In this document: in pieces, positions 1 to 55,571 of the stretch | How positions within the stretch are numbered: the first letter of the stretch is position 1 | How the letters are laid out: every line of letters starts with the position of its first letter | Source: Escherichia phage vB_EcoM_JL1 | DNA length: 55,571 nucleotides | Sequence record: OR791690.1 | Reading direction: 5' to 3' (one strand) | Notes under the pieces: model-generated | Told to the model about the DNA's origin: nothing | Seen by the model: only the letters and a program-made list of their open reading frames with translations | The model's database searches: none | Translations under genes and position numbers: made by a program

Positions 1-324
1 GACTTCTTCTCTTCTTTCGAATTCTGATTGAAAGAAAGAAGCATGTCCAAAAGTTCCAATATTACAAAGTTATCTCCCGGCTTGTGGGTGGGCCTTTATA
101 ATAGGAGATGGAGCAATATTGTTGCAATTGAACATGCTTTAGTTGAAGAACAGTTTCGAATGGTAATCCTACTTCACACATGGTTGTTGGAACTTTGTCC
201 GGCCAAAGACAGGGAGTTCAATGATTGCCACATCATTACAACACTGTATGTTTAGTTGACATGCTGAAATGTTTCTAGAATGATTTCAACATGACATGCG
301 GAATACTTCTCCGTATTCTGTTAC

Positions 325-344
325 TTCACATCCAACTAATGTTA
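325..344 (-). promoter_or_regulatory. Phage-promoter-like conserved motif (copy P1)
   Basis: plus ttcacatccaactaatgtta; minus-strand consensus AACATTAGTTGGATTTGAAG shared by about 12 sites. Confidence 0.4.
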
Positions 345-416
345 CAGGTGGCTACAATATTGAAGCCAGCTCTAAGATTAATTGAAACAAGAAAAGGGAG
401 CCGAAGCTCCCAAATA

Positions 417-617
417 TCAGAACGGTATCTCTGTATCGAAATAACCAGAATTGTGCAAATATGCATGCAGTAATACATGCGACTCTTGTTTATATTCTGC
501 TAACAACTCTAAGAAGTCTTTAGTCTCCTCCACTGTAGGACGAGATAAGTTGCTCATGTCACAGGTGTGATGAGGGTTGAAACAGTTTTCGATTTGATTG
601 ATTTGCATGGTATTCAT
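417..617 (-). CDS. Small hypothetical protein (66 aa) ending in SSB-tip-like DTEIPF
   Basis: minus-strand ORF downstream of RNAP gene; C-terminus ...GYFDTEIPF resembles the E. coli SSB tip DDDIPF. Confidence 0.5.
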   Translation of the reverse strand: MNTMQINQIENCFNPHHTCDMSNLSRPTVEETKDFLELLAEYKQESHVLLHAYLHNSGYFDTEIPF

Positions 618-665
618 TATAAGTCTCCAAGTTTGTGGTCATCCTTGACCAATTAGTGTTACTGA

Positions 666-2780
666 TTATTGACAGAAGTAGTAAGCGTGTTCGCTCATCA
701 GAAGCTCTTCAGTTACGATGTTCTCATGATACATCTTGATGCCACCAAGTTGCTTAGACAGATTCTCGAATTGATTGTTGGTTACAAAGATTTCAACATA
801 TGCTGCACGAATAACTTCCATCATACGTGGAGCATCTGCCAAACAGCAACGGAAACAATCATGGATTGAAGTGAAGCCACGAAGACCAGCTTCTTTAGCT
901 TTAACTGCAACAGTACGAGCAACAAGTGCATCAATGCCCTGAATGTAGTTAACAACGAAAGTACGCTTGAATTCTTCTTTAGTTGGATTGGATTCACGAA
1001 TGGTCCAAGGCTTATTCTCCTGAATCTGACCAAAGATAACACGAGTTTGGGAGTCAACACGAATGCTGAATGCCTCACAGATTTCACGAGATGGGAAGCA
1101 AGGCTTCATTACAACCTGACCATCAGTGTGACGATATGTGATGTACTCTTTACCAAGTTCAACACAACGGTTGTATGCAGCATCAGCAGCTTTCTCAATG
1201 AACATGTTAATCTTAGCACCCAATGCGTTATGGATTGCTTCCACACACAGTTCAGCAAATGCCTCAGCTTTCTCCATAGGAATCTGGAGTGCTTCTGTCA
1301 TGTAGCTGATGAAGTCAGAAGAACCAGTCAATGCAGCTTTACCACCACCGTATTGGATAGCCATGTACGGAGTTTTGATAAACTTACGACCAGCTTTCGG
1401 ATTCAAGAATTCATCCATGATTTCAGGAGATGGTTTCATTGAAGACTTGTCCAGCAGCTTCAACAGTTCACGAAGACTCAACTGGTATGGGTCAGATGCT
1501 TTAGTCTCAGAATCAACCAGACCTGTTGCACGAGCCATTTCCATATTACCAGCAATGAATGCCAGATATTGAGTACCAGAACATTTAGCATCTAAGCCAA
1601 AGCCTACACGAGAATCACATTCACCTGTAGTCTCGAACTTGAACCAATCCAGAGCCAGACGAACATAAGTGAATGGCTTGGAAGGACGTTCAGCTTTAGG
1701 CATGTTCATCATGCGAGCAAGTGAACCAGCTGGATTCTGAGCAACATAAGTTAAACGCTTAGCACTGCACCATTCACCACCAGAAATATCTTCCAGCTCT
1801 GCCATAAACATGTTGTATGCAATGGTAGTAGAACCATCTTCGTTAAACTTCTTAACGATGTTCTCAACATTGTGAGAATACAAGCAACGAGCAAAGTCAG
1901 ATGATTGTGGGTTAGGACCAGCACATGCTACATGATACAGACGACCACGGTTATCAGCAAAGTAGTCAGAATACAGTGTGTCCTGATTCATCATTGCTAC
2001 AGCATTGTTCCAAACATGGAGTTCAGTCTGGATTGCTTCTGGCATCTGCAAGCCACCATAGGTACGTTGTTCAAGCATGGACTGAATGATGCGAACCATC
2101 TCAGTCTCCACATGGTACTCAGTATCTTGCAGGAATTCGATTGCAGCTTTCAGAGTTTTGGATGGCTTAACTTTGCCACCTTTAACGAAAGGCTTGCGAC
2201 GAGATTCAGATGTAACACGCTCAGTGAATGGCACTGCGGTATCTTTGGTTGTAACCAGCTCAACCCATGTGTCAGTTTGTTGGAACGACTTATCTTCGTT
2301 CATGGTGATGAAGCCAAAGTGCTTAGCCAGGCCAATGAGGTTGATAGCTGGGTCAACATAGTGCATTGCTTTCAAATCATTGTTGTAACGGTTGGCATCA
2401 GCAATTGAAGCAGAAGCCAGCTCAACCATTGCAATTGCAGGAACAACATCATCACGAGTGAATGAGGTCATCATCTTAAAGATTGCAAGAGCAGCAATAG
2501 CACAGGTCTGAGGTTGCATGTAGTTCTGTTTCTCTTTGGCACGATATACCAGAGCAGTGATAGCAGGGACAACGGATTTGATAGTTTGAGTTGAGATAGT
2601 TGCCATTTTGCGAGTCTCCAATTTAGTTTCGGTTTTAGTTTCGGATTGTGTAGCGGAGGTGATTTCATCTACCATCTGGTTGCAACGGTCCATCGTATCG
2701 AGCACGTCTTTCCAACCGTGGCCTTCTTCTTTTAAGCGAGCACCATCAGCAGCCAGTGTACGATATTCTTCATTAGTCAT
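666..2780 (-). CDS. T7-like single-subunit DNA-dependent RNA polymerase (704 aa, compact)
   Basis: motifs DAKCSGTQYLAF (T7 DGSCSGIQHFSA), KTPYMAIQYGGG, SIHDCF (T7 HDSFGT); ATG at 2780 with GGAGA RBS. Confidence 0.85.
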   Translation of the reverse strand: MTNEEYRTLAADGARLKEEGHGWKDVLDTMDRCNQMVDEITSATQSETKTETKLETRKMATISTQTIKSVVPAITALVYRAKEKQNYMQPQTCAIAALAIFKMMTSFTRDDVVPAIAMVELASASIADANRYNNDLKAMHYVDPAINLIGLAKHFGFITMNEDKSFQQTDTWVELVTTKDTAVPFTERVTSESRRKPFVKGGKVKPSKTLKAAIEFLQDTEYHVETEMVRIIQSMLEQRTYGGLQMPEAIQTELHVWNNAVAMMNQDTLYSDYFADNRGRLYHVACAGPNPQSSDFARCLYSHNVENIVKKFNEDGSTTIAYNMFMAELEDISGGEWCSAKRLTYVAQNPAGSLARMMNMPKAERPSKPFTYVRLALDWFKFETTGECDSRVGFGLDAKCSGTQYLAFIAGNMEMARATGLVDSETKASDPYQLSLRELLKLLDKSSMKPSPEIMDEFLNPKAGRKFIKTPYMAIQYGGGKAALTGSSDFISYMTEALQIPMEKAEAFAELCVEAIHNALGAKINMFIEKAADAAYNRCVELGKEYITYRHTDGQVVMKPCFPSREICEAFSIRVDSQTRVIFGQIQENKPWTIRESNPTKEEFKRTFVVNYIQGIDALVARTVAVKAKEAGLRGFTSIHDCFRCCLADAPRMMEVIRAAYVEIFVTNNQFENLSKQLGGIKMYHENIVTEELLMSEHAYYFCQ

Positions 2781-2842
2781 GATAAAGTCTCCAATTGATT
2801 ATGATTTAACTGAAACGGATTAGACTTGCGTAGCCTATTCAT

Positions 2843-2862
2843 AATCACAACCAACTAATGGT
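2843..2862 (-). promoter_or_regulatory. Phage-promoter-like conserved motif (copy P2), 63 nt upstream of RNAP start
   Basis: plus aatcacaaccaactaatggt. Confidence 0.4.
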
Positions 2863-2995
2863 GAGGTGAGCACACTACAACAGCGTACTCTGATTGCCTT
2901 TGACCTTGACTTATAAGCGAAGCGCCTAACTTGGTGTTGTTTGAAAGCCGATAGGCTGTAGGAAAAAGTTGGAGTAGGGACCGTATTTAAGTCCG

Positions 2996-3424: not shown

Positions 3425-4525
3425 TTAAAGCTCAAATCCGCCCAGAGCATTGGTGTCCACTTCGGAATCAATCTGCCCGACAAGGTACGAACTAATCTCC
3501 GTTTCTTGTGGAGCAACTTGTACAGCATCCGAATTCAACCATGCGTTAATCCAAGGAATCGGGTTAGTAGCACCTTTGAATGGAGCATCTAATCCAACTG
3601 CTTGCATACGAATATTCGTGATATATTCCACATATCCGCATAGAATTTGCTTGTTTAAGCCAATCATTGAGCCATCTTTGAACAAATAATCAGCCCAATC
3701 TTTCTCTTGTTGGGCCACATTTTCGAACATGAGTTGGCATTCTTGGCGGCATTCTTTAGCAATTTCGGCCATTTCTGGGTCATCAACACCACTTGCAAGA
3801 AGGTTCAGCATGTGTTGAGTTCCAGTCAAATGGAGTGCTTCATCACGAGCAATTAAGCGAATAATCTTGGCATTTCCTTCCATCAACTTGCGTTCAGCGA
3901 AGGCAAATGAACAAGCAAAACTGACATAAAAGCGGATTGCTTCTAGTGCATTAATGGACATGAGGCATAAATATAGCTTCTTCTTAAGCTCACGAATAGA
4001 AACCTCATCTTCATGCAGATGCCACATGGAAGTTAGGTGTTGAAGTTCGTCATAATATTGGGAGATGCCGATTGCACGCATTTTAATATGCTCATTCTCC
4101 ACAATTTCATCGAAAATGACACTCGGGTCTGTAACAATATTACGAATAATATGCGTGTAAGAACGGGAGTGAATTGTCTCTGAGAAGGACCAAGTTTCAA
4201 TCCAAGTTTCCAGCTCAGGAATGCTCACAATTGGCAGCAAAACTGTGGTTGGTCCACGTCCCTGAATGGAGTCAAGCAAGATTTGATAGCGCAAATTGCT
4301 GGTGAAGATGTGCTTCTCACATTCAGGCAGACCAGCATAGTCAATTCGGTCCTGGCTAACATCAACCTCTTCAGGTCGCCAAAAGAAAGATAACTGCTTT
4401 TCGATTAACTTCTCGAAGATGCTATACTTCTGTTGGTCATATCGAGCAACGTTAACGTTCTGACCAAAGAACATTGGCTCTAGTAGTTGGTTATTCTTGG
4501 TTTGTGAAAAGGTAGTGTAAGCCAT
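3425..4525 (-). CDS. nrdB: Ribonucleotide reductase class Ia small subunit (NrdB), host-like
   Basis: near-colinear with E. coli NrdB as I recall it ([11 protein letters not shown]..., [32 protein letters not shown]); no NrdA in the window. Confidence 0.9.
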
Positions 4526-5079
4526 TACAGATTTCCTAGATACTCATAGAATTTATGGCCACCATAACGCCCCAAACCTTTAACATTCTTGAAGTTGCAC
4601 TTCTCCGATGCTGTACAAAAGTGGGTTGCTTTGGTGACAGAGGGTTGATTAAATAGTACAAAAGAGATTGCAACATTAATGGTGTCCAGAACTTGTTGTT
4701 GTTCTGTGGCATAATTAATCTTTGCTACATGCTTCCATTGAGCATTCTTCTTCTTTGCTTCTCGTGTCCATGCAAATTGATTGCGTTGATAGACAACATC
4801 ACAAACGGTGTTAGCGAATGGCTTCCCGAACTCAGTTCTATTACGGACGACATTAGCTACCAGAATCTTTCCATGTTTGTCTTCTCCGCGAGCTTCATAC
4901 CAGATAACTTTAGTATAGCATTCTAGCTCTTTGCGTTGTGAAGAAGATAGTTTCAGACTTCCATTTAAATAAGAATGACTTGCAAAATCTGTAATAGCAG
5001 AATTCACTGCCCCAACCGAAGCTGGGGCGTTGATGTGAACTAAAGCTGCCAGAACTGCAAGGACTTTGAATGATAGCAT
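4525..5079 (-). CDS. SleB/CwlJ-like cell-wall hydrolase with N-terminal signal sequence (candidate endolysin)
   Basis: VIWYEARGE and VVRNR motifs typical of the Hydrolase_2 family; hydrophobic N-terminus [20 protein letters not shown]; next to holin; stop overlaps nrdB start (TAATG). Confidence 0.65.
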
Positions 5080-12300: not shown

Positions 12301-13184
12301 AAGATACGCCCCTTGATAGAAGAAAGTGGAGAAGCAAGTTCACTCAACTTACCTTTCAAGTTGGATAACTGTTTGGTTGGAAGAGTGCCAAGAGCACCGA
12401 GTCCTGGAAGTGGAACACCACCAAGAACACCCATACCCAAACTTTGAGCAACCTTCGCAAATTCAGAATAGTCAGACATTGATTCCATTGCTTTACGAGC
12501 TTCGCTGGCAAGAGCATCTTCATCAACTGTCTGCAATTCTTCAAACAAGATTTCAACTGACAACATTGCAGAAGTCATCTTATCATGTTTGGTTTTGATT
12601 GAGGTTACTACACAATTCAAATAAGGTCCCAGAATGGTGGAGATGTATAACTTCTGCCCCGTAACACGGAAGCTGTTAAACAAATCGTAGGTAGACTGGA
12701 TTCGGTTGCTTGTTTCAAATGCAGAAGCAACGCCACCAGCAATTCCACCAAGGATGGGAATGATTGGGCTATTGAAGATTGCGCCAGAAGCAACAGATAA
12801 ACCTTGTACAGATGCAGACCACATGGAGGAGTTCTGCATGTTGACAGCAACAGCGGTCAGCTTAAGTACCCTGTTCTGGTTAATAACATGGTCACTAACC
12901 ATGAAGCCAGAACTAACAGGGAACTTGGTTACAGTTGTTTCAGACGCATGTTCTTCACTAACCATTGCATCAAATTTAAAAGAGTTAAAACTTTCGGTGG
13001 CAGCTTCACCAACAATAGGCAAGCTCTCAAGCGATTTCGCAAATCCACCAAACAGCCCAGATTCCTCTTCCTTCTGAGATGCAGGTCCATTGGACCACAT
13101 GACAATAGATGGATGATGCCCGTAGCTGAAATTCTTCAAGCCGGAGGACACACCACCAATGAGGTCGGTATCAAAGATAGACAT
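12297..13184 (-). CDS. Baseplate hub / tail protein (putative)
   Basis: 295 aa; position downstream of tape measure. Confidence 0.4.
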   Translation of the reverse strand: MSIFDTDLIGGVSSGLKNFSYGHHPSIVMWSNGPASQKEEESGLFGGFAKSLESLPIVGEAATESFNSFKFDAMVSEEHASETTVTKFPVSSGFMVSDHVINQNRVLKLTAVAVNMQNSSMWSASVQGLSVASGAIFNSPIIPILGGIAGGVASAFETSNRIQSTYDLFNSFRVTGQKLYISTILGPYLNCVVTSIKTKHDKMTSAMLSVEILFEELQTVDEDALASEARKAMESMSDYSEFAKVAQSLGMGVLGGVPLPGLGALGTLPTKQLSNLKGKLSELASPLSSIKGRIL

Positions 13185-14296
13185 TAAAATGACTCCATTG
13201 CCATTCCACTGTTAGCATACATTTCCTGCCACGCAGCTTCCTTACCACCCATCATTGTATTGCCACCCAATATTGCAGTGATTGATGTTTGATAAATGGT
13301 TGAGTGGGTCGAGCCTTTATGCACAACTTCCATGATAAAATATTTGTCTTCAACAGCCCACCGGAATACGGACTGGTCTGTGTTAAGAACAATACCTTCC
13401 CCTGAAACAGAAGTTACACCGTTAGCAAGCAACTTCTTCTTACCGAGCAAAGGAGATACATCAAGAATCATACCTGGTTGGAAAGATGGGTTTAGGAATG
13501 TATTTAAAGTGTAGGTGCAGATTCCAGCAACAGGGTTGCCAATAACAGAGTCTTCATCCAGCTGGACTGGCTCTCTGTCTTTAGACATTCTGTTTACAGC
13601 ATCTTTATCACCAAAGGTATCTGGGAAGATTTGCACTTCACCAGTTGTAACAGTGTATAACAAATTGTATTCGCCAAGCATGTTGCGAAATTCGTGTAAG
13701 AATGTGTCATGGAACACACGCCCACGAGGCATCACTGTTTCAAGGACCGAATCTTCAACACCAAATGTAGAGATGGTATTGAACCCATAGTCAGAACACA
13801 TTGAGCGCATTGCATCAATGAGTTTGGTTCCAGGCTTGATTGCAGTCAACTGTTTGAAATCAGTGGATGCACCATATGCCTTGGAAATACAAAACAATTG
13901 TGTTACATGTTCAGGAGGCTTTCTATAACCAACTGCGTTTGTAATAATCCCGGAGAAGATGGTTGGTAGTGATGTAGACATTGTTACGCGGTCACTCTGT
14001 TCAGCCTTCTGGCCAAACTTCTTAGCACCGCCACTAGAAGTCCCGCCACTAGAGTCTGAACGTTCATCTTCTGCATACCCTGCACGAATTTCAATATACA
14101 TATCTCCGTAGGACTTGTCTTGGAGGAACTTAACTTCTTCTAACGACAAGTTAAACAGAGTTATGTTTGCTGTATCGGCGGGCCACCCAACAGTAGAACG
14201 GACTTCAAAATCAATACGATGTGATTTAAATACCGTCCGAATACTTGGGTCTTCTTTACGTGAAACTATTACTTCAACTCTGCGAAGCCACGGCAT
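13184..14296 (-). CDS. Tail protein (DNA-circulation-protein-like by position)
   Basis: 370 aa; immediately downstream of tape measure gene. Confidence 0.4.
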   Translation of the reverse strand: MPWLRRVEVIVSRKEDPSIRTVFKSHRIDFEVRSTVGWPADTANITLFNLSLEEVKFLQDKSYGDMYIEIRAGYAEDERSDSSGGTSSGGAKKFGQKAEQSDRVTMSTSLPTIFSGIITNAVGYRKPPEHVTQLFCISKAYGASTDFKQLTAIKPGTKLIDAMRSMCSDYGFNTISTFGVEDSVLETVMPRGRVFHDTFLHEFRNMLGEYNLLYTVTTGEVQIFPDTFGDKDAVNRMSKDREPVQLDEDSVIGNPVAGICTYTLNTFLNPSFQPGMILDVSPLLGKKKLLANGVTSVSGEGIVLNTDQSVFRWAVEDKYFIMEVVHKGSTHSTIYQTSITAILGGNTMMGGKEAAWQEMYANSGMAMESF

Positions 14297-14369: not shown

Positions 14370-17300
14370 TTACCTTCTTTGTTGCGCACCGTTGTTCATG
14401 TTCATTTGTTGGGTCACAGTCTGACCACCAGGAATTGCCACTGTAGCAGAAGCAGTCTGGTTGTTGACCTTAGCATCAATCTTGACATTAACAACAGTTT
14501 GGGTTTGACCGTATGACATTCCATTACGGGTAAACCCTGTAGCACCTTCATCCAAGCCTTTGGAAGACTTAGCCCACTCACGATATGCTTTAACTCGCTT
14601 CTGAGCCTGAGCTGGAACAGCATTAAGCCAATCCATCCCAAACTTATCGACAGCCTTGTCAACAGTTCTGGGGCCATCCGTGTAAGCAGCCATTGCTTTC
14701 TCGTGGTCGCCACCATAACGCTTGTACATTGCATCGTACAATTCACGACCAACACGAGCATCTTCTTCAGGACTTCCATCAGAAGGTTTGATTCCATAAC
14801 CTGGGTCACGAGCAGTGGAAGGAAGAACCTGCATGATTCCACGAGCACCAGTTGGGCTTGTAACTCGTGTGCCATCCTTGTTGTATTCCCTCCCACCAGA
14901 TTCTTCCTTGGCTATGAAGTCATACACATTTGCAGCAACTTGGCGAGCTTGGCTGTAACCAGAGTTGGCAGCACCAGCAGCAGTGCTTCCAGCTTCGAAC
15001 AGTGCAGCACCGTGAGATAACACACTTTGTGGCACGTTATGCCCTGGCAGGAGCTGTGCGCGCTCCACCTGCAACATTTCTGACTGAGCCATACCTTCGG
15101 CAAAGTCAGAGTTTCTACCCGCTTCTACCACCGAACCTGCTCGCTCATGGCTGTATTCCGTGCGGTCGTAGGCTCGCGCCATCCCATTCAGGCCAGCCAT
15201 TTCGGCAGCACCTGCGATACGGGCCTGACTCCAGCCACGCTCCTTGCCCCTTTCCTGCATGATGCGAGCTAGGGCCACAGGGTCGCCGCCTGTCGCACGA
15301 ATATCGCCTATGGTGAGCAATCCCCTACTGCCGCGAACGATGTTCACAGCGGCGCTGGGGTCGCCGTTAAGCATGGTATTGTAGGCACTATGTGTGGTTT
15401 GATTCAGACGCGCAGCTTGTTGTGAGTTAAGCCCTAACATCTCCAAGCCTTGCGACATGGAGGAGTATTCATTAGGATTCATAACACCAGCATCAAGCGA
15501 GTTGCCGATAAAGTCATTCATGTATTCAGCAGCTTCATTGCCAATCTGAATAGCACCAATGCCTACAGCAGCCATACGTCCAGCAGGAGTTGCCATCAAT
15601 GCTTGCATAACTCCGTTGGTTGCTGAACCAATACTGCCGCCAGCAATTCCAGCAGCTAGTGAACCACCCATGCGACCATAGTCATCATAGTAGTTGCCAC
15701 CACTTGTGAAGTTACCGCCACGACCACCACCACCGCCAGAATATCCACCGCCATTGGCAGCATCAAATCTTTCGCGGTCCCAACCCATTGAATCGGCTTT
15801 GCCGTTAAAGTCTGCGTCTGCACTAATACCCTTCTGCCTGTTTTCTTCCTGAGCAGCAAGGATACCTTTCTTAACAGACAATGCCATAGAGTCATTTCCA
15901 GTATCACCGTTTCCTGTGGTTGCTGGAAAGTTTTGCTCGTGCATTACAAAGTTTGGCTTGTAGTCAGAATAAGATGCTTCTGGATTGTACGAGGAGCGTG
16001 AACCAATAAACGGGTCTTCTGGAGTACCAGCAGCAGCAGAATAGCCACGAGTGGACTTTTGACGAATATCCTTCCAGATTCCATCGCCAGTCATTGCACT
16101 TCTTGCACCAGCAATTAGCTCTTCTCGCTCTAATCCAGCATTGTTTCTAACAAACTCTCGCCCAGCATCAAGACGACCAAGCACAGAATCAAGGCGATTT
16201 CGGTTTCTTTCGTACCATCCCTCGTCCTTCTCAATCCATTGTGAACGTGTTTCGTCGTTGATGGTTTGTGAGAACAAAGCACGAGAACGGCCAGAAACGT
16301 GCATACCAAATTGAATTTGGTCCATGTAGTCTGGATGGTCGCCTTTAAGAAGGTCAGCAAACTTACCAGCCCTTTGCGGATTCTTGTGCTCCCAAATGGC
16401 ATCATCCCCAATAAGACCATCAGGAGAATACATGAAGGCGGGATAGTTGTCATTTGTTATAGCGCCAGTTTGTTTGATATCGAATCCAAATTCCTTACCA
16501 ACACGAGCGCGTGCTTCTTCTTCCGTCCTGTGACCATCAGCGAACATCTTCTTAGTGAAATCGCTGTGCTCTTTACTGCGGGATAGGCCAATCTTATCAA
16601 TCATCCCAGCCCAAGGTCGGGTATATGGGTTGTTTCCTAAGAAGGTTCCAACAGTTGAGCCAGTTATGTCATAATTTTTACGGAAGTCCAGCCACTCTTG
16701 GCTGCCCTGTTCTAAGTCATGGAATCGGACGGGGGACTCGGAACGTCCTGTACCATAGTCTGATACATCACGGAATCCAGCACTATCCATATTTGCAATC
16801 GCAAGTTCCTCACGACGCATTCTTGCAGAGTTCCAATTGGTGGCCTCTCCAAGTTGTGCTGTAAAATCTGTAGATGTTGACAGTGAATCTTTATCGACTC
16901 GCTGTGAAGCTCCCTTCATCTTTGGAATGCGAACAGGTTCGGCATCCATTTTGTCGTAAGTGTTTTCGAGAATAGCTCGAACACTTGATGCAGAATAAGC
17001 TGGCTCATCTGCAAGTTCAGAACGAAGGTTTTCGTATCCGCTTCTGGCTTCTTCCAAATCTGTGTAGCGTGTTGCACTATCCATAATCATGTCACGGTCA
17101 GATACTTCGTGACGAGTATTCAGCATCCCTTTGGAGCCAGAATAAACTTTGGCAGCAGATTTAACAGCTTCACTAATAGAAGAATACAAAGCCTTGCTCG
17201 GCTCGCTCCAACCTGTGCCACCAGTTAGTGATGCAGTGAGGGAGTATTCTGGGTTTATGCCAGAACCATAAGAGCCAAGAGGAAGTCCAGATGCGTTAAG

Positions 17301-18098
17301 TGGTGCACGAGGATGTGCAATGCCAGAAACAATTGAAGGAGAACCAATCTGAGGGAGTGCATCCATGTAAGAAATATGTGGGGCCGATTTATTTCCTACA
17401 TTAGATGCAGAGGTATACCCAACTTCCTTAAAGGCTGCGGGTAACTCTTGTTCCAGACGTTTGGCAACTCGACTAATGTCTCTTGCGTATTGTTCATGAT
17501 TGCTGTATTGCTCACGGTCAACATACATGTGGGCCATGTAGTTATAGGAGTCAGCAATGTTTCCACGGTTGGTGGAGTATTCTGCCATAATATCGCCAGC
17601 ATAATGGCCTGGGATTTCCGGCATAATGTCTTGATGCCCTTGCAAAGTATCTCGCATATAGGCATTAAGCATATTGAAACTACCTTGCGGTAAGTTCGGA
17701 TTTGGCTTTGGCATGTGCATCCACACATCATCTGTGCTAACGCCAAGCCTTTCCATGTATGCGTGAACAGCTTCTACATGGTGTGATGGGCCATTCATTG
17801 CTGCATGAAATGCTTCTGTGTAGCCTGCACTTGAAAGCACTTGTGCAATGTGGGCAGCGTCTGAAATCATGGAAGAGTCACCCAAAGATTCAGTAATTAA
17901 ACTGTCATCTTCGAACGACCCGCCCATTAATTCTGCATTTGTATCCAGCCATCCCGAAGCAGCGCTCGCACTAAGTTGTTGAACCATGTGCGACTTCTTC
18001 ATACCAGCGTGGAAAGTCAGACCGCTTTGAGAGCCTAATGCAATTAACTCATTAACGCTCAACTTCATTAAATCTTTTTGATTAGCCATTGTCTTCAT
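14370..18098 (-). CDS. Tape-measure-like tail protein (1242 aa) with embedded YqaJ-type PD-(D/E)XK nuclease domain and C-terminal lytic transglycosylase (SLT) domain
   Basis: position between chaperone and baseplate genes; QGSQEWLDFRKNYDITGS ... SPDGLIGDDAIWEHKNP (YqaJ-like); Gly-rich and hydrophobic segments; ESGG ... GIMQV near C-terminus (SLT). Confidence 0.7.
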   Translation of the reverse strand: MKTMANQKDLMKLSVNELIALGSQSGLTFHAGMKKSHMVQQLSASAASGWLDTNAELMGGSFEDDSLITESLGDSSMISDAAHIAQVLSSAGYTEAFHAAMNGPSHHVEAVHAYMERLGVSTDDVWMHMPKPNPNLPQGSFNMLNAYMRDTLQGHQDIMPEIPGHYAGDIMAEYSTNRGNIADSYNYMAHMYVDREQYSNHEQYARDISRVAKRLEQELPAAFKEVGYTSASNVGNKSAPHISYMDALPQIGSPSIVSGIAHPRAPLNASGLPLGSYGSGINPEYSLTASLTGGTGWSEPSKALYSSISEAVKSAAKVYSGSKGMLNTRHEVSDRDMIMDSATRYTDLEEARSGYENLRSELADEPAYSASSVRAILENTYDKMDAEPVRIPKMKGASQRVDKDSLSTSTDFTAQLGEATNWNSARMRREELAIANMDSAGFRDVSDYGTGRSESPVRFHDLEQGSQEWLDFRKNYDITGSTVGTFLGNNPYTRPWAGMIDKIGLSRSKEHSDFTKKMFADGHRTEEEARARVGKEFGFDIKQTGAITNDNYPAFMYSPDGLIGDDAIWEHKNPQRAGKFADLLKGDHPDYMDQIQFGMHVSGRSRALFSQTINDETRSQWIEKDEGWYERNRNRLDSVLGRLDAGREFVRNNAGLEREELIAGARSAMTGDGIWKDIRQKSTRGYSAAAGTPEDPFIGSRSSYNPEASYSDYKPNFVMHEQNFPATTGNGDTGNDSMALSVKKGILAAQEENRQKGISADADFNGKADSMGWDRERFDAANGGGYSGGGGGRGGNFTSGGNYYDDYGRMGGSLAAGIAGGSIGSATNGVMQALMATPAGRMAAVGIGAIQIGNEAAEYMNDFIGNSLDAGVMNPNEYSSMSQGLEMLGLNSQQAARLNQTTHSAYNTMLNGDPSAAVNIVRGSRGLLTIGDIRATGGDPVALARIMQERGKERGWSQARIAGAAEMAGLNGMARAYDRTEYSHERAGSVVEAGRNSDFAEGMAQSEMLQVERAQLLPGHNVPQSVLSHGAALFEAGSTAAGAANSGYSQARQVAANVYDFIAKEESGGREYNKDGTRVTSPTGARGIMQVLPSTARDPGYGIKPSDGSPEEDARVGRELYDAMYKRYGGDHEKAMAAYTDGPRTVDKAVDKFGMDWLNAVPAQAQKRVKAYREWAKSSKGLDEGATGFTRNGMSYGQTQTVVNVKIDAKVNNQTASATVAIPGGQTVTQQMNMNNGAQQRR

Positions 18099-18257
18099 CT
18101 ACTGGTTCGAGTTTCTTACGCAAATCGAGAATGTCGTGGAATAGCAATAAGTCCATAATCGAATAGGTTCCATCTTGCAATTCATGTAACTTGCAGAGAG
18201 AACTGTCTTCGATTATAGGACGATGCAGAAAATATTTTATGTCGGGGAACAGGGATA

Positions 18258-18716
18258 CTAAACTGTCTCCGGACTCGAATTCTTCTGCTCTGCCAGCTTG
18301 GATGCTTCCTCCGCCTCCAATCGTCTCTGTTCGTTGATTTCGAGCCCTTGCTTGAAAAAATCAAGGAAGTTTGCTTCGAGCACGAAAGCAAAGACATGGC
18401 AAGACAACATCAATTCGCCATTAAACTGCATATCATATAATGCAGGTTTGATTTCTTGTCCATCTATGGACGAGTGCATGCTGATAACACGCTTAAACAA
18501 TTCTGTGAATACGGTATGCTCCACTTGCTGCATCAAGTATATAATATCAGCGAAGTTATATTTACCTTCGATGAATGGGAATACTCGTGAGCCTAGCTTG
18601 CTTACCAACTCCGCGTGAAGAGACAGTGCAGCCGAAGCCGACAATTGTCGAACAACGACTAACACTGTTTCGCCTTTGGAGTTTGTGAATTCACGTTGAA
18701 GCAATTCACAAGCCAT
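18258..18716 (-). CDS. Tail assembly chaperone (putative)
   Basis: 152 aa between tube and tape measure genes. Confidence 0.4.
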   Translation of the reverse strand: MACELLQREFTNSKGETVLVVVRQLSASAALSLHAELVSKLGSRVFPFIEGKYNFADIIYLMQQVEHTVFTELFKRVISMHSSIDGQEIKPALYDMQFNGELMLSCHVFAFVLEANFLDFFKQGLEINEQRRLEAEEASKLAEQKNSSPETV

Positions 18717-23450: not shown

Positions 23451-24038
23451 TTAAGACTTCGGCGTAATAGCAATTTCTTTAGTTGCAGTCACGCTGGAGG
23501 TTGTTTTGTTTGTTGCCTTAATCGTGGCAGAGGTATCAGTGGTCGTCTCATTCAGAACAGTTACAGTACCATTTGCAGCCACAGAAACGCCAGTCACAGG
23601 AGGTGTAACAGTGTAGGCATAATCTGTTGCTGTAGAATTACCAAACTTGAACAGCTTGTCTACAGTTACAGTGGCATCAGCAGAAGACGCATCAGCCGTT
23701 ACAACTCCAGCTACAGCAGACACCGTAGGTGCAGGAGGTTTAGGCTTAATCGTAATCACTTTAGATGCAGTTACACCAGGCTCTGTTTTATTCGTTGCCT
23801 TGATTGTCGCAGAAGTGGCTGTAGTCGTTGCACTTAGTACAGTCACAGTGCCGTTTGCCGCCACAGAAACACCAGCTACAGCAGGAGTAACGGCGAAGTT
23901 GTAATCTGTTGCTGTAGAGTTCTCAAACGTAAACAGTTTGTCTACAGTTACAGTGGCATCAGATGCAGATGCGTCCGCAGTTACAGTACCTGCTACAGCA
24001 GACACCGCAGGAGCTGGAGGTGGCGTTACGGCTTTGGG
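23451..24038 (-). CDS. -1 frame C-terminal extension with two Ig-like (Big_2-type) repeats, reached by programmed frameshift
   Basis: -1 frame open from slippery site 24032..24038 to TAA at 23451; encodes tandem ~90-aa repeats (SAVAGTVTADASASDATVTVDKLF...). Confidence 0.55.
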   Translation of the reverse strand, partial: PKAVTPPPAPAVSAVAGTVTADASASDATVTVDKLFTFENSTATDYNFAVTPAVAGVSVAANGTVTVLSATTTATSATIKATNKTEPGVTASKVITIKPKPPAPTVSAVAGVVTADASSADATVTVDKLFKFGNSTATDYAYTVTPPVTGVSVAANGTVTVLNETTTDTSATIKATNKTTSSVTATKEIAITPKS

Positions 24039-45404: not shown

Positions 45405-45803
45405 TTATGCTGGAAGTTCGAAGTGCGGTGCATCAAGGAACTTAGCCCATTTCACTGGCTTAGTGAAGGTCCGTTCCCATGTTCCACCCCAGCGAATGAC
45501 AACTCCAAGCTCTTCTGCGGCTTTGAACATGTGTTCAGCCACAATTTGGAATCGTTCGAGGTCATTCCAGTCAATCGGATATGGTGCAATGTCTAAAGCA
45601 TTGCCTGACATGTGTCGGCTAACTGAAACTTTGGTTGCACCTTGCTTTAAAAGCTCTTGTTGACGCTCATGAGTGCGCAATCCTTCAAGAACAGTTACGT
45701 CAAACGGCATTGTTTCACATGCACGCTTGAAAACTGCCACCAATGAAGGATTTACGCCTTTGAGTCGGTCAATGGAGCGTTGGCCCAGCTTAACGTTAGA
45801 CAT
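45405..45803 (-). CDS. Peptidase M15-type (L-alanyl-D-glutamate peptidase / VanY-like) peptidoglycan hydrolase
   Basis: SRHMSGNALDIAP zinc-binding motif; 132 aa. Confidence 0.6.
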   Translation of the reverse strand: MSNVKLGQRSIDRLKGVNPSLVAVFKRACETMPFDVTVLEGLRTHERQQELLKQGATKVSVSRHMSGNALDIAPYPIDWNDLERFQIVAEHMFKAAEELGVVIRWGGTWERTFTKPVKWAKFLDAPHFELPA

Positions 45804-52520: not shown

Positions 52521-52992
52521 AATATTTGTTGCTCAAAATCGGGGCGGCAAACGATATTAAATTCGATGCTTTGTCCGACTTCTTCTCTTCTTTCGAATTC
52601 TGATTGAAAGAAAGAAGCATGTCCAAAAGTTCCAATATTACAAAGTTATCTCCCGGCTTGTGGGTGGGCCTTTATAATAGGAGATGGAGCAATATTGTTG
52701 CAATTGAACATGCTTTAGTTGAAGAACAGTTTCGAATGGTAATCCTACTTCACACATGGTTGTTGGAACTTTGTCCGGCCAAAGACAGGGAGTTCAATGA
52801 TTGCCACATCATTACAACACTGTATGTTTAGTTGACATGCTGAAATGTTTCTAGAATGATTTCAACATGACATGCGGAATACTTCTCCGTATTCTGTTAC
52901 TTCACATCCAACTAATGTTACAGGTGGCTACAATATTGAAGCCAGCTCTAAGATTAATTGAAACAAGAAAAGGGAGCCGAAGCTCCCAAATA

Positions 52993-53193
52993 TCAGAACG
53001 GTATCTCTGTATCGAAATAACCAGAATTGTGCAAATATGCATGCAGTAATACATGCGACTCTTGTTTATATTCTGCTAACAACTCTAAGAAGTCTTTAGT
53101 CTCCTCCACTGTAGGACGAGATAAGTTGCTCATGTCACAGGTGTGATGAGGGTTGAAACAGTTTTCGATTTGATTGATTTGCATGGTATTCAT
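52993..53193 (-). CDS. Copy of 417..617 (small protein ending DTEIPF)
   Basis: sequence identity with 417..617. Confidence 0.5.
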   Translation of the reverse strand: MNTMQINQIENCFNPHHTCDMSNLSRPTVEETKDFLELLAEYKQESHVLLHAYLHNSGYFDTEIPF

Positions 53194-53241
53194 TATAAGT
53201 CTCCAAGTTTGTGGTCATCCTTGACCAATTAGTGTTACTGA

Positions 53242-55356
53242 TTATTGACAGAAGTAGTAAGCGTGTTCGCTCATCAGAAGCTCTTCAGTTACGATGTTCT
53301 CATGATACATCTTGATGCCACCAAGTTGCTTAGACAGATTCTCGAATTGATTGTTGGTTACAAAGATTTCAACATATGCTGCACGAATAACTTCCATCAT
53401 ACGTGGAGCATCTGCCAAACAGCAACGGAAACAATCATGGATTGAAGTGAAGCCACGAAGACCAGCTTCTTTAGCTTTAACTGCAACAGTACGAGCAACA
53501 AGTGCATCAATGCCCTGAATGTAGTTAACAACGAAAGTACGCTTGAATTCTTCTTTAGTTGGATTGGATTCACGAATGGTCCAAGGCTTATTCTCCTGAA
53601 TCTGACCAAAGATAACACGAGTTTGGGAGTCAACACGAATGCTGAATGCCTCACAGATTTCACGAGATGGGAAGCAAGGCTTCATTACAACCTGACCATC
53701 AGTGTGACGATATGTGATGTACTCTTTACCAAGTTCAACACAACGGTTGTATGCAGCATCAGCAGCTTTCTCAATGAACATGTTAATCTTAGCACCCAAT
53801 GCGTTATGGATTGCTTCCACACACAGTTCAGCAAATGCCTCAGCTTTCTCCATAGGAATCTGGAGTGCTTCTGTCATGTAGCTGATGAAGTCAGAAGAAC
53901 CAGTCAATGCAGCTTTACCACCACCGTATTGGATAGCCATGTACGGAGTTTTGATAAACTTACGACCAGCTTTCGGATTCAAGAATTCATCCATGATTTC
54001 AGGAGATGGTTTCATTGAAGACTTGTCCAGCAGCTTCAACAGTTCACGAAGACTCAACTGGTATGGGTCAGATGCTTTAGTCTCAGAATCAACCAGACCT
54101 GTTGCACGAGCCATTTCCATATTACCAGCAATGAATGCCAGATATTGAGTACCAGAACATTTAGCATCTAAGCCAAAGCCTACACGAGAATCACATTCAC
54201 CTGTAGTCTCGAACTTGAACCAATCCAGAGCCAGACGAACATAAGTGAATGGCTTGGAAGGACGTTCAGCTTTAGGCATGTTCATCATGCGAGCAAGTGA
54301 ACCAGCTGGATTCTGAGCAACATAAGTTAAACGCTTAGCACTGCACCATTCACCACCAGAAATATCTTCCAGCTCTGCCATAAACATGTTGTATGCAATG
54401 GTAGTAGAACCATCTTCGTTAAACTTCTTAACGATGTTCTCAACATTGTGAGAATACAAGCAACGAGCAAAGTCAGATGATTGTGGGTTAGGACCAGCAC
54501 ATGCTACATGATACAGACGACCACGGTTATCAGCAAAGTAGTCAGAATACAGTGTGTCCTGATTCATCATTGCTACAGCATTGTTCCAAACATGGAGTTC
54601 AGTCTGGATTGCTTCTGGCATCTGCAAGCCACCATAGGTACGTTGTTCAAGCATGGACTGAATGATGCGAACCATCTCAGTCTCCACATGGTACTCAGTA
54701 TCTTGCAGGAATTCGATTGCAGCTTTCAGAGTTTTGGATGGCTTAACTTTGCCACCTTTAACGAAAGGCTTGCGACGAGATTCAGATGTAACACGCTCAG
54801 TGAATGGCACTGCGGTATCTTTGGTTGTAACCAGCTCAACCCATGTGTCAGTTTGTTGGAACGACTTATCTTCGTTCATGGTGATGAAGCCAAAGTGCTT
54901 AGCCAGGCCAATGAGGTTGATAGCTGGGTCAACATAGTGCATTGCTTTCAAATCATTGTTGTAACGGTTGGCATCAGCAATTGAAGCAGAAGCCAGCTCA
55001 ACCATTGCAATTGCAGGAACAACATCATCACGAGTGAATGAGGTCATCATCTTAAAGATTGCAAGAGCAGCAATAGCACAGGTCTGAGGTTGCATGTAGT
55101 TCTGTTTCTCTTTGGCACGATATACCAGAGCAGTGATAGCAGGGACAACGGATTTGATAGTTTGAGTTGAGATAGTTGCCATTTTGCGAGTCTCCAATTT
55201 AGTTTCGGTTTTAGTTTCGGATTGTGTAGCGGAGGTGATTTCATCTACCATCTGGTTGCAACGGTCCATCGTATCGAGCACGTCTTTCCAACCGTGGCCT
55301 TCTTCTTTTAAGCGAGCACCATCAGCAGCCAGTGTACGATATTCTTCATTAGTCAT
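53242..55356 (-). CDS. Copy of T7-like single-subunit RNA polymerase gene
   Basis: identical to 666..2780. Confidence 0.85.
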   Translation of the reverse strand: MTNEEYRTLAADGARLKEEGHGWKDVLDTMDRCNQMVDEITSATQSETKTETKLETRKMATISTQTIKSVVPAITALVYRAKEKQNYMQPQTCAIAALAIFKMMTSFTRDDVVPAIAMVELASASIADANRYNNDLKAMHYVDPAINLIGLAKHFGFITMNEDKSFQQTDTWVELVTTKDTAVPFTERVTSESRRKPFVKGGKVKPSKTLKAAIEFLQDTEYHVETEMVRIIQSMLEQRTYGGLQMPEAIQTELHVWNNAVAMMNQDTLYSDYFADNRGRLYHVACAGPNPQSSDFARCLYSHNVENIVKKFNEDGSTTIAYNMFMAELEDISGGEWCSAKRLTYVAQNPAGSLARMMNMPKAERPSKPFTYVRLALDWFKFETTGECDSRVGFGLDAKCSGTQYLAFIAGNMEMARATGLVDSETKASDPYQLSLRELLKLLDKSSMKPSPEIMDEFLNPKAGRKFIKTPYMAIQYGGGKAALTGSSDFISYMTEALQIPMEKAEAFAELCVEAIHNALGAKINMFIEKAADAAYNRCVELGKEYITYRHTDGQVVMKPCFPSREICEAFSIRVDSQTRVIFGQIQENKPWTIRESNPTKEEFKRTFVVNYIQGIDALVARTVAVKAKEAGLRGFTSIHDCFRCCLADAPRMMEVIRAAYVEIFVTNNQFENLSKQLGGIKMYHENIVTEELLMSEHAYYFCQ

Positions 55357-55571
55357 GATAAAGTCTCCAATTGATTATGATTTAACTGAAACGGATTAGA
55401 CTTGCGTAGCCTATTCATAATCACAACCAACTAATGGTGAGGTGAGCACACTACAACAGCGTACTCTGATTGCCTTTGACCTTGACTTATAAGCGAAGCG
55501 CCTAACTTGGTGTTGTTTGAAAGCCGATAGGCTGTAGGAAAAAGTTGGAGTAGGGACCGTATTTAAGTCCG

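Follow-up and report, generated by a model that had tools for sequence, protein, structure and literature searches.

A lambda-exonuclease-type nuclease domain within the predicted tape-measure protein of Escherichia phage vB_EcoM_JL1 and related Chaseviridae

Tape-measure proteins with cell-wall hydrolase modules are known from several phages, including Tmp of mycobacteriophage TM4, pb2 of T5, and tape measures bearing an SLT (lytic transglycosylase) domain. Other virion proteins travel into the cell with the DNA and engage the genome ends as soon as infection begins, as do Mu N (gp43) and T4 gp2, injected DNA-end-binding proteins that bind and protect the ends without a nuclease fold. T7 gp16, a multidomain protein of more than 1200 aa from the podovirus head core, has an N-terminal SLT domain and no nuclease, and is ejected to bridge the envelope. 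Nucleases are also delivered by the contractile sheath-tube machines of type VI secretion systems (T6SS) and extracellular contractile injection systems (eCIS), as cargo or as lumen or tip fusions, where they are toxins directed against a target genome. The canonical chemistry of the YqaJ nuclease family is processive 5'-to-3' resection from a 5'-phosphorylated double-stranded DNA (dsDNA) end, and two of the enzymes to which we compare it, lambda exonuclease (lambda Exo, or Red-alpha; a free enzyme of ~200-230 aa) and LHK-Exo, are toroidal trimers. Here, we describe a gene at 14370..18098 of Escherichia phage vB_EcoM_JL1 (sequence record OR791690.1; the whole 55,571-nt stretch that was analyzed is referred to as the window) whose predicted tape-measure product contains both an SLT domain and a nuclease domain of the YqaJ/lambda Exo type.

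The phage is a phiEcoM-GJ1-like myophage, placed in Chaseviridae, subfamily Cleopatravirinae, genus Carltongylesvirus. Its long tail protein shares with the hydrolase-bearing tape measures a position after G/GT-type chaperones, a probable virion location and a predicted peptidoglycan-cleaving entry module, but the extra module here is a predicted DNA exonuclease whose substrate would be cytoplasmic, and the protein is modeled as compact domains and long disordered linkers with no tape-measure Pfam family. An RNA polymerase of the T7 type and terminal repeats are features that this phage shares with T7, and the gp16 SLT domain matches structurally, although no homology is detectable outside that domain. 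Mu N and T4 gp2 have no sequence or fold similarity to the phage protein. Unlike the toxins of T6SS and eCIS, the enzyme here would be an end-dependent, recombination-type exonuclease, and its carrier is a tape measure.

Three lines of evidence, from profile, fold and active site, support the nuclease assignment. Pfam applied to the whole protein returned exactly two families, YqaJ and SLT, both well over their curated cut-offs, with YqaJ (PF09588) scoring 51.4 bits (cut-off 22; E 1.9e-13) at aa 468-604 and covering profile positions 1-149 of 150. RecE-like exonuclease PHROGs matched aa 454-647, and a PDB sequence search retrieved LHK-Exo (3syy, E 2e-6) as well as Slt70. The AlphaFold model of aa 440-690, built with 61 family sequences, has a predicted local distance difference test score (pLDDT) of 91 and a predicted TM-score of 0.87. 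Foldseek matched this model to lambda exonuclease (1avq, 3sm4 and 3slp; E ~1e-10) and to LHK-Exo (3syy/3sz4; TM 0.79-0.80, root-mean-square deviation 3.5-3.6 Å), with Cas4-like and other PD-(D/E)XK nucleases among the lower-ranked matches. An initial annotation, made from the letters of the sequence, had proposed a YqaJ-type domain at residues ~463-640 and had named a profile search and structure prediction as checks; both uphold the proposal, and the DNA coordinates given with it are correct.

The same annotation had quoted two strings as the family signature, QGSQEWLDFRKNYDITGS and then SPDGLIGDDAIWEHKNP (D...E-H-K), which are present at aa 464-481 and aa 558-574, respectively. Alignment to lambda Exo, taken from the lambda genome record, equates R473 with R28, D560 with D119, E570 with E129 and K572 with K131, and places Y591, Q594 and Q596 on the YxxQxQ helix of lambda Exo. 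All seven residues are invariant in 87/87 homologues (MAFFT alignment; identity down to 39%), and aa 521-640 are among the best-conserved segments of the protein in this alignment. The phage domain therefore has the same predicted fold, D...E-x-K, 5'-phosphate-binding Arg and YxxQxQ as lambda Exo and LHK-Exo, although sequence identity to them is only 20-25% and the domain lies inside a 1242-aa putative virion protein. Because profile, fold and D/E/K conservation all agree, the YqaJ assignment stands; sequence and model together indicate a complete YqaJ/lambda-Exo-type nuclease with an intact active site, and the alignment indicates that this site is under strong purifying selection. Its chemistry would be that of a Mg-dependent, processive 5'-to-3' dsDNA exonuclease. 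A chance motif match was also considered, and was rejected on E-values, fold and active-site invariance.

Database searches found 88 homologues of the full protein, of 1200-1280 aa save for three shortened entries of 800-900 aa, most of which lie on contigs of ~52-54 kb; YqaJ is present in the precomputed domain list for 80 of them. At the nucleotide level the gene is 93-94.5% identical to those of phages Bp7, Bp10, flopper, ST32 and others. Megablast also matched it to GenBank PP952070.1, 'Staphylococcus phage Pel53' (87% nucleotide identity, 65% aligned), for which the host is given as Staphylococcus hyicus, a host assignment that looks doubtful. An exhaustive HMMER search with the nuclease domain alone returned the family first, followed by proteins of 962-1534 aa in which the domain is similarly placed and 32-41% identical; these second-tier proteins come from uncultured phages and are related to the same tail protein over its full length, at ~30% identity. 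D...E-x-K and QxQ are kept in all ten of the distant relatives inspected (P0092-95, P0099, P0101, P0135, P0143, P0156 and P0179), and SLT was undetected at E<=0.001 in four of the seven scanned with Pfam (P0092, P0094, P0135 and P0156). The closest free-standing YqaJ enzymes are at most 37% identical to the domain.

A fold search of viral models retrieved a 925-aa protein of Aeromonas phage pAh6.2TG. In the related pAh6-C, a member of Nefertitivirinae, the other subfamily of Chaseviridae, the annotation divides the tape-measure slot between two overlapping open reading frames (ORFs) that together contain the motifs W..R..VTSS, TPDA...VEVK and YLQMQHQ and match Pfam YqaJ with E 2e-5; a Gly-rich run and the helical-domain motif 'TRGAITLGDL' are found there as well, and SLT is absent from these ORFs. 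The nuclease is thus present in both Chaseviridae subfamilies and in distant relatives, and is therefore part of the conserved core of the tail protein, while the SLT domain looks, from these sequences, like a later addition in one branch. The junction between the two pAh6-C ORFs (gp10/gp11; L010 1624-4757) falls inside the nuclease domain, an arrangement that could reflect a frameshift from sequencing, a genuine division into two genes or programmed frameshifting.

GenBank records disagree in naming the orthologue (tail fiber, virion structural protein, tape measure protein, tail tube initiator, putative endonuclease), and PHROG 19855, 'virion structural protein', matches the 1242-aa protein over its whole length. 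Gene order is sheath (PHROG 205), tube, Phage_TAC_15 chaperone, the long gene, baseplate hub and Dit-like protein, in keeping with the placement between chaperone and baseplate genes that had been noticed initially; the matches of chaperone and hub are given in Table 1. Within the chaperone gene, with frames read directly, a slippery heptamer T_TTT_TTC is found at 18354-18360, and the -1 frame is open for 90 codons, its stop at 18082 falling shortly after the long gene begins. The predicted frameshift product (18082..18716) would have ~211 aa and is G/GT-like. T_TTT_TTC at codon ~118, with an extension of 89-93 codons to the start of the long gene, is also found in the close relative L006 and in phages PP101, Papaline and phiA050, which infect Pectobacterium, Erwinia and Aeromonas, respectively, making the -1 frameshift common to five lineages with this phage included; it is unmarked in all four annotated relatives inspected (flopper, Mangalitsa, PP101 and Papaline). 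The reading frames indicate that the chaperone and its -1 product are a G/GT-type pair of the kind that precedes tape measure genes. Because of this coupling and of synteny, we assign the gene, amid the conflicting names, to a tape-measure or ejection protein.

Some GenBank records call the orthologue 'putative tail fiber' or 'tail fiber protein', and the identity of a tail fiber or other external structural protein would also accord with the lack of a match to Pfam tape-measure families in the 1242-aa protein and with an AlphaFold model that is multidomain rather than one long helix. The gene, however, has the frameshifting chaperone pair directly upstream and the hub downstream, no other tape measure candidate lies between the tube and baseplate genes, three separate tail-fiber genes are found downstream, and neither Pfam nor Foldseek detected a beta-helix or receptor-binding fold. 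We rejected this identity on synteny and regard it as barely credible. The word 'usual' in the initial annotation likens the protein too closely to a tape measure, as its architecture is predicted to be multidomain beads-on-a-string and it matches no Pfam tape-measure family.

The length rule for tape measures uses the alpha-helical rise of 0.15 nm per residue. This rule fails here, as 1242-1279 aa would correspond to 186-192 nm and measured tails are 110-132 nm (110-130 nm reported for Chaseviridae and 132 ± 5 nm for PP101); length and tail agree only if ~340-400 residues of both enzyme domains are left out. Together, the two enzyme domains account for roughly the ~400 residues in excess, consistent with their lying outside the ruler. 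In phage 4HA13, the homologue (P0025; 63% identical) was identified by liquid chromatography-tandem mass spectrometry of CsCl-purified virions with 64-67% sequence coverage, in a preparation also containing SSB.

The nuclease differs sharply between phages that are otherwise nearly identical. Nucleotide identity to L006 is 92-100% over the sheath-proximal genes and most of the tape-measure gene and, within the latter, falls to 60-77% only at ~16,800 to ~15,900, with a second drop to 65-85% at ~15,100 to ~14,500, which is the SLT block (aa ~1000-1200). The protein encoded by L006 (P0007) is correspondingly 62% identical to the window protein in aa 456-660, against 98-99% in aa 1-440 and aa 720-1000. 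For the phiEcoM-GJ1 type, identity is 90-99% in aa 1-160, 59% across aa 161-660 and 93-95% in aa 720-1000, while the 4HA13 type is ~63% identical overall, yet 80-82% in the nuclease. Among 123 protein pairs with flanks at least 90% identical, 67 have nucleases that are at most 65% identical. Three nuclease types are present within the Carltongylesvirus clade, two of them also in other genera, and the catalytic residues are kept through every cassette swap. These comparisons indicate that the nuclease and, separately, the SLT blocks are exchanged between relatives as recombination cassettes, a mosaicism that is, as judged from the sequences, a new observation here. It explains why the megablast alignments with phages TH23, TH25 and TH28 are confined to nt 1387-2096 of the gene, and why this ORF of ST32 was reported to be only 76% identical to phiEcoM-GJ1 with neighbors 99-100% identical. 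Cassette exchange among near-identical phages points to strong, changing selection, possibly by host defenses that sense or block ejected proteins.

The initial annotation had suggested action on host or competing DNA at entry, or a part in genome-end processing. The mosaic pattern would suit an injected effector that degrades linear or broken host DNA, plasmids, competing phage DNA or defense DNA intermediates, and so serves host takeover or counter-defense instead of acting on the phage genome: the cassette is the most divergent block between ~99%-identical phages and is swapped between lineages with its catalytic residues fixed, as is typical of genes in host conflict, contractile systems (T6SS, eCIS) commonly deliver nuclease effectors, and a partner annealing protein was not found in annotated relatives and scanned ORFs. 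We nevertheless consider an effector unlikely, as each infection would bring in only a few copies (three for a trimeric protein) and lambda-Exo-type enzymes need a free dsDNA end, of which an intact chromosome has none. The first DNA end that the domain meets would be the phage's own, and the 5'-phosphate-binding Arg suits terminase-cut phage ends at least equally well.

Sequence and models together indicate that the protein is modular, with, from N to C terminus, a helix-extended-helix (HeH)-like N-terminus, a helical region, the nuclease, a Gly-rich segment, a helical domain and the SLT domain (Table 1). It contains no cysteine. The AlphaFold model of aa 1-1200 has a mean pLDDT of 67, with compact blocks at aa 80-150, 170-330, 456-700 (nuclease), 860-1010 (helical domain) and 1057-1180 (SLT) that are joined by long low-confidence linkers at aa 380-455 and aa 700-860, the second of which holds the Gly-rich run; the predicted architecture is beads-on-a-string, without the continuous helix usually drawn for tape measures. 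Foldseek of this model against the PDB gave only nuclease and SLT matches, with none for aa 80-380 or 860-1010, and Pfam searches covering aa 1-60, aa 1-439 and aa 691-1242 (E<=10) added no family to SLT. A family profile of the N-terminal ~47 aa had the Rho N-terminal HeH motif as its eleven best PDB matches, all weak (E 0.07-0.4), and the helix-loop-helix is kept even in ~30%-identical relatives; these matches are suggestive only, and the motif possibly binds nucleic acid.

Gly makes up 18% of aa 661-870. Of the Gly-rich and hydrophobic stretches noted initially, the former was found at aa ~783-812, but hydrophobicity is only moderate, stretches of 19 residues scoring at most 1.2 (aa 834-852) on the Kyte-Doolittle scale; hydrophobic transmembrane stretches were dropped from the description, as no segment is over the usual hydropathy threshold. 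The helical domain at aa 860-1010 has the highest conservation in the 87-sequence alignment and was found only in these phages by tblastn against 50,697 phage records, and its motif, GSRGLLTIGDIR, is also visible in distant relatives and in pAh6-C gp11. The C-terminal SLT domain had likewise been recognized at the outset from ESGG...GIMQV, with correct DNA coordinates. These motifs lie at aa 1066-1069 and aa 1087-1091, Pfam SLT (PF01464) matches aa 1048-1152 with 46.2 bits (cut-off 21.3; E 3.9e-12), the catalytic E1066 is kept in 86/87 homologues, and Foldseek matched the region to Slt70-type enzymes and to the SLT domain of T7 gp16 (9jyy_I).

Table 1. Features of the tape-measure gene, its neighbors and the genome ends in the window (aa, residues of the 1242-aa protein unless a gene product is named).
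Feature	Position (nt)	Strand	Residues and details	Basis
Tape-measure / ejection protein gene	14370..18098	-	1242 aa, ATG start	ORF; PHROG 19855
Lambda-exonuclease / YqaJ-type PD-(D/E)XK nuclease domain	16119..16733	-	aa 456-660	Pfam, PHROG, PDB, AlphaFold, Foldseek
Active-site codons	16383..16682	-	R473 16680-16682, D560 16419-16421, E570 16389-16391, K572 16383-16385	codons verified
Y591, Q594 and Q596 codons	16311-16328	-	YxxQxQ motif, just outside 16383..16682	
Recombination cassette, nuclease domain with linkers	15900..16800	-	aa ~434-733	nucleotide identity drop to L006
N-terminal helix-extended-helix-like motif	17958..18086	-	aa 5-47	AlphaFold helices 5-11, 15-24, 35-47
Conserved helical/folded N-terminal region	16959..17861	-	aa ~80-380	pLDDT 70-90
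Gly-rich run, then Gly/Ala-rich weakly hydrophobic segment	15540..15752	-	aa 783-853	low pLDDT
Highly conserved helical domain, family signature	15069..15521	-	aa 860-1010, motif GSRGLLTIGDIR	pLDDT 85-90
C-terminal SLT lytic transglycosylase domain	14559..14957	-	aa 1048-1180, E1066 codon 14901-14903	
Tail assembly chaperone gene	18258..18716	-	152 aa product	Pfam Phage_TAC_15 E 2.9e-18; PHROG 11820
Baseplate hub gene, directly downstream of tape-measure gene	13184..14296	-		PHROG 196, E 4.6e-52
Direct terminal repeat (candidate nuclease substrate)	1..2995, copy at 52577-55571			exact, 0 mismatches

The window consists of a 52,576-bp unit plus a direct terminal repeat of 2,995 bp and, with the repeat at both ends, is therefore a complete genome with both repeat copies. 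The repeat holds the gene for a T7-like RNA polymerase (666..2780 and 53242..55356), and terminal repeats of 3.1-3.2 kb, supported by PhageTerm, have been reported for relatives. We lean toward the domain being a virion-delivered 5'-to-3' exonuclease that acts on dsDNA ends at entry. More tentatively, we name the phage's own terminally redundant ends as its preferred target, because the first 5'-phosphorylated dsDNA end available would be the phage's own. The tape-measure protein would lie in the lumen of the tail tube, probably trimeric like its counterparts in other tails, until contraction of the sheath expels it. The C-terminal SLT domain would cut peptidoglycan, the Gly/Ala-rich segment may help in crossing the inner membrane, and the N-terminal two thirds of the protein, nuclease included, would arrive in the cytoplasm alongside the leading genome end. 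The nuclease would there engage the 5'-phosphorylated dsDNA end before any phage gene expression and, by resecting the 5' strand into the ~3-kb repeat, would expose a 3' tail. Pairing of this tail with the other repeat could then circularize or concatemerize the genome. While bound, the nuclease may also shield the end from RecBCD.

SSB and a DprA-like mediator are encoded by early genes, a FEN-type 5'-3' exonuclease and a ligase are present too, and no second lambda-Exo/RecE-type nuclease was found in annotated relatives and the ORFs scanned. That result would equally serve an exonuclease that works in the producer cell, in recombination or concatemer processing before tail assembly, with its virion location incidental to the nuclease. 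Hundreds of copies would exist late in infection, and the canonical role of YqaJ enzymes is end resection for recombination-dependent replication. The fusion, however, is kept down to ~16-30% identity and in both Chaseviridae subfamilies, a persistence difficult to account for unless it is tied to delivery; chaperones normally bind tape measure proteins once these are made, and a free-standing gene would do equally well. A role confined to the producer cell is, in our judgment, not likely.

Several observations weigh against an end-processing enzyme that arrives with the virion. No RecT/Red-beta/Erf/Sak-type partner was found in the flopper annotation or in ten early/replication ORFs (PHROG and Pfam; several small ORFs unscanned), and because no annealing partner was found, the nuclease is, on this sequence evidence, outside the two-component module of exonuclease and annealing protein. 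Three folded domains of ~22 kDa would fit the ~4-nm lumen of the tube tightly, requiring staggered or part-unfolded storage, and the hydropathy scan predicts no strong transmembrane helix. If the leading repeat were resected, the RNA polymerase gene would become single-stranded in its first copy, which argues against extensive own-end resection. The 4HA13 virion preparation held non-structural proteins, SSB being one, and a fast-diverging mosaic cassette resembles arms-race genes more than housekeeping end processing.

Two further possibilities concern how the domain would handle the leading end. As a non-degradative clamp or pilot, with little or no hydrolysis, it would hold the leading 5'-phosphorylated end, so that DNA tethered to the tape measure is drawn through the channel and shielded from RecBCD, an outcome like that of Mu N or T4 gp2. 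The invariant Arg equivalent to lambda R28 (5'-phosphate pocket), the position of the tape measure next to the DNA end in tailed phages and the weak Rho_N/HeH-like motif at the N-terminus are all compatible with such a clamp. We find it quite unlikely, since binding alone would not require the general-base Lys and both metal-binding acidic residues, which are invariant at every depth sampled, and since the domain, ~455 residues from the N-terminus, may not touch the DNA end in the virion. Very unlikely, in our view, is an arrangement in which, after ejection, three nuclease domains assemble into a ring like that of lambda Exo where the entry channel opens into the cytoplasm, with the leading genome end threaded through it. 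Such a ring would be anchored in the envelope through the rest of the protein, and its processive 5'-to-3' digestion would be a motor that reels in the first ~3 kb, the dispensable terminal repeat, without host energy or transcription, leaving a 3' tail ready for repeat-to-repeat annealing. If this were true, nuclease-driven phage genome entry would be a new mode.

Two other loci of the window were noted in passing. A 184-aa ORF (23451-24005, minus strand) adjoining the major capsid gene consists of two tandem, T/V/A-rich repeats of ~94 aa, whose 282-nt units are 77% identical, and could encode a duplicated immunoglobulin-like head-decoration domain. An endolysin-like gene (45405-45803, minus strand; PHROG 465) lies in the early region, and the late endolysin gene (4525..5079) adjoins the holin gene.

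Public sequences of this family date back to 2008, the domain is flagged by database pipelines, and 'putative endonuclease' is the name in one GenBank record. Literature searches on tape-measure nucleases, ejected or tail lambda exonuclease and Chaseviridae exonuclease returned no paper discussing the domain, the Chaseviridae family literature examined does not mention it, and we came across no earlier description of a tape measure in which a recombination-type DNA exonuclease is conserved with its catalytic site intact. These phages grow on E. coli K-12, which makes the system easy to test. If the nuclease is active on entry, an enzyme of the phage for processing DNA ends would arrive in the cell ahead of all gene expression, which would bear on how linear, terminally redundant genomes survive RecBCD, on their circularization or concatemerization, and on how the DNA is drawn in.

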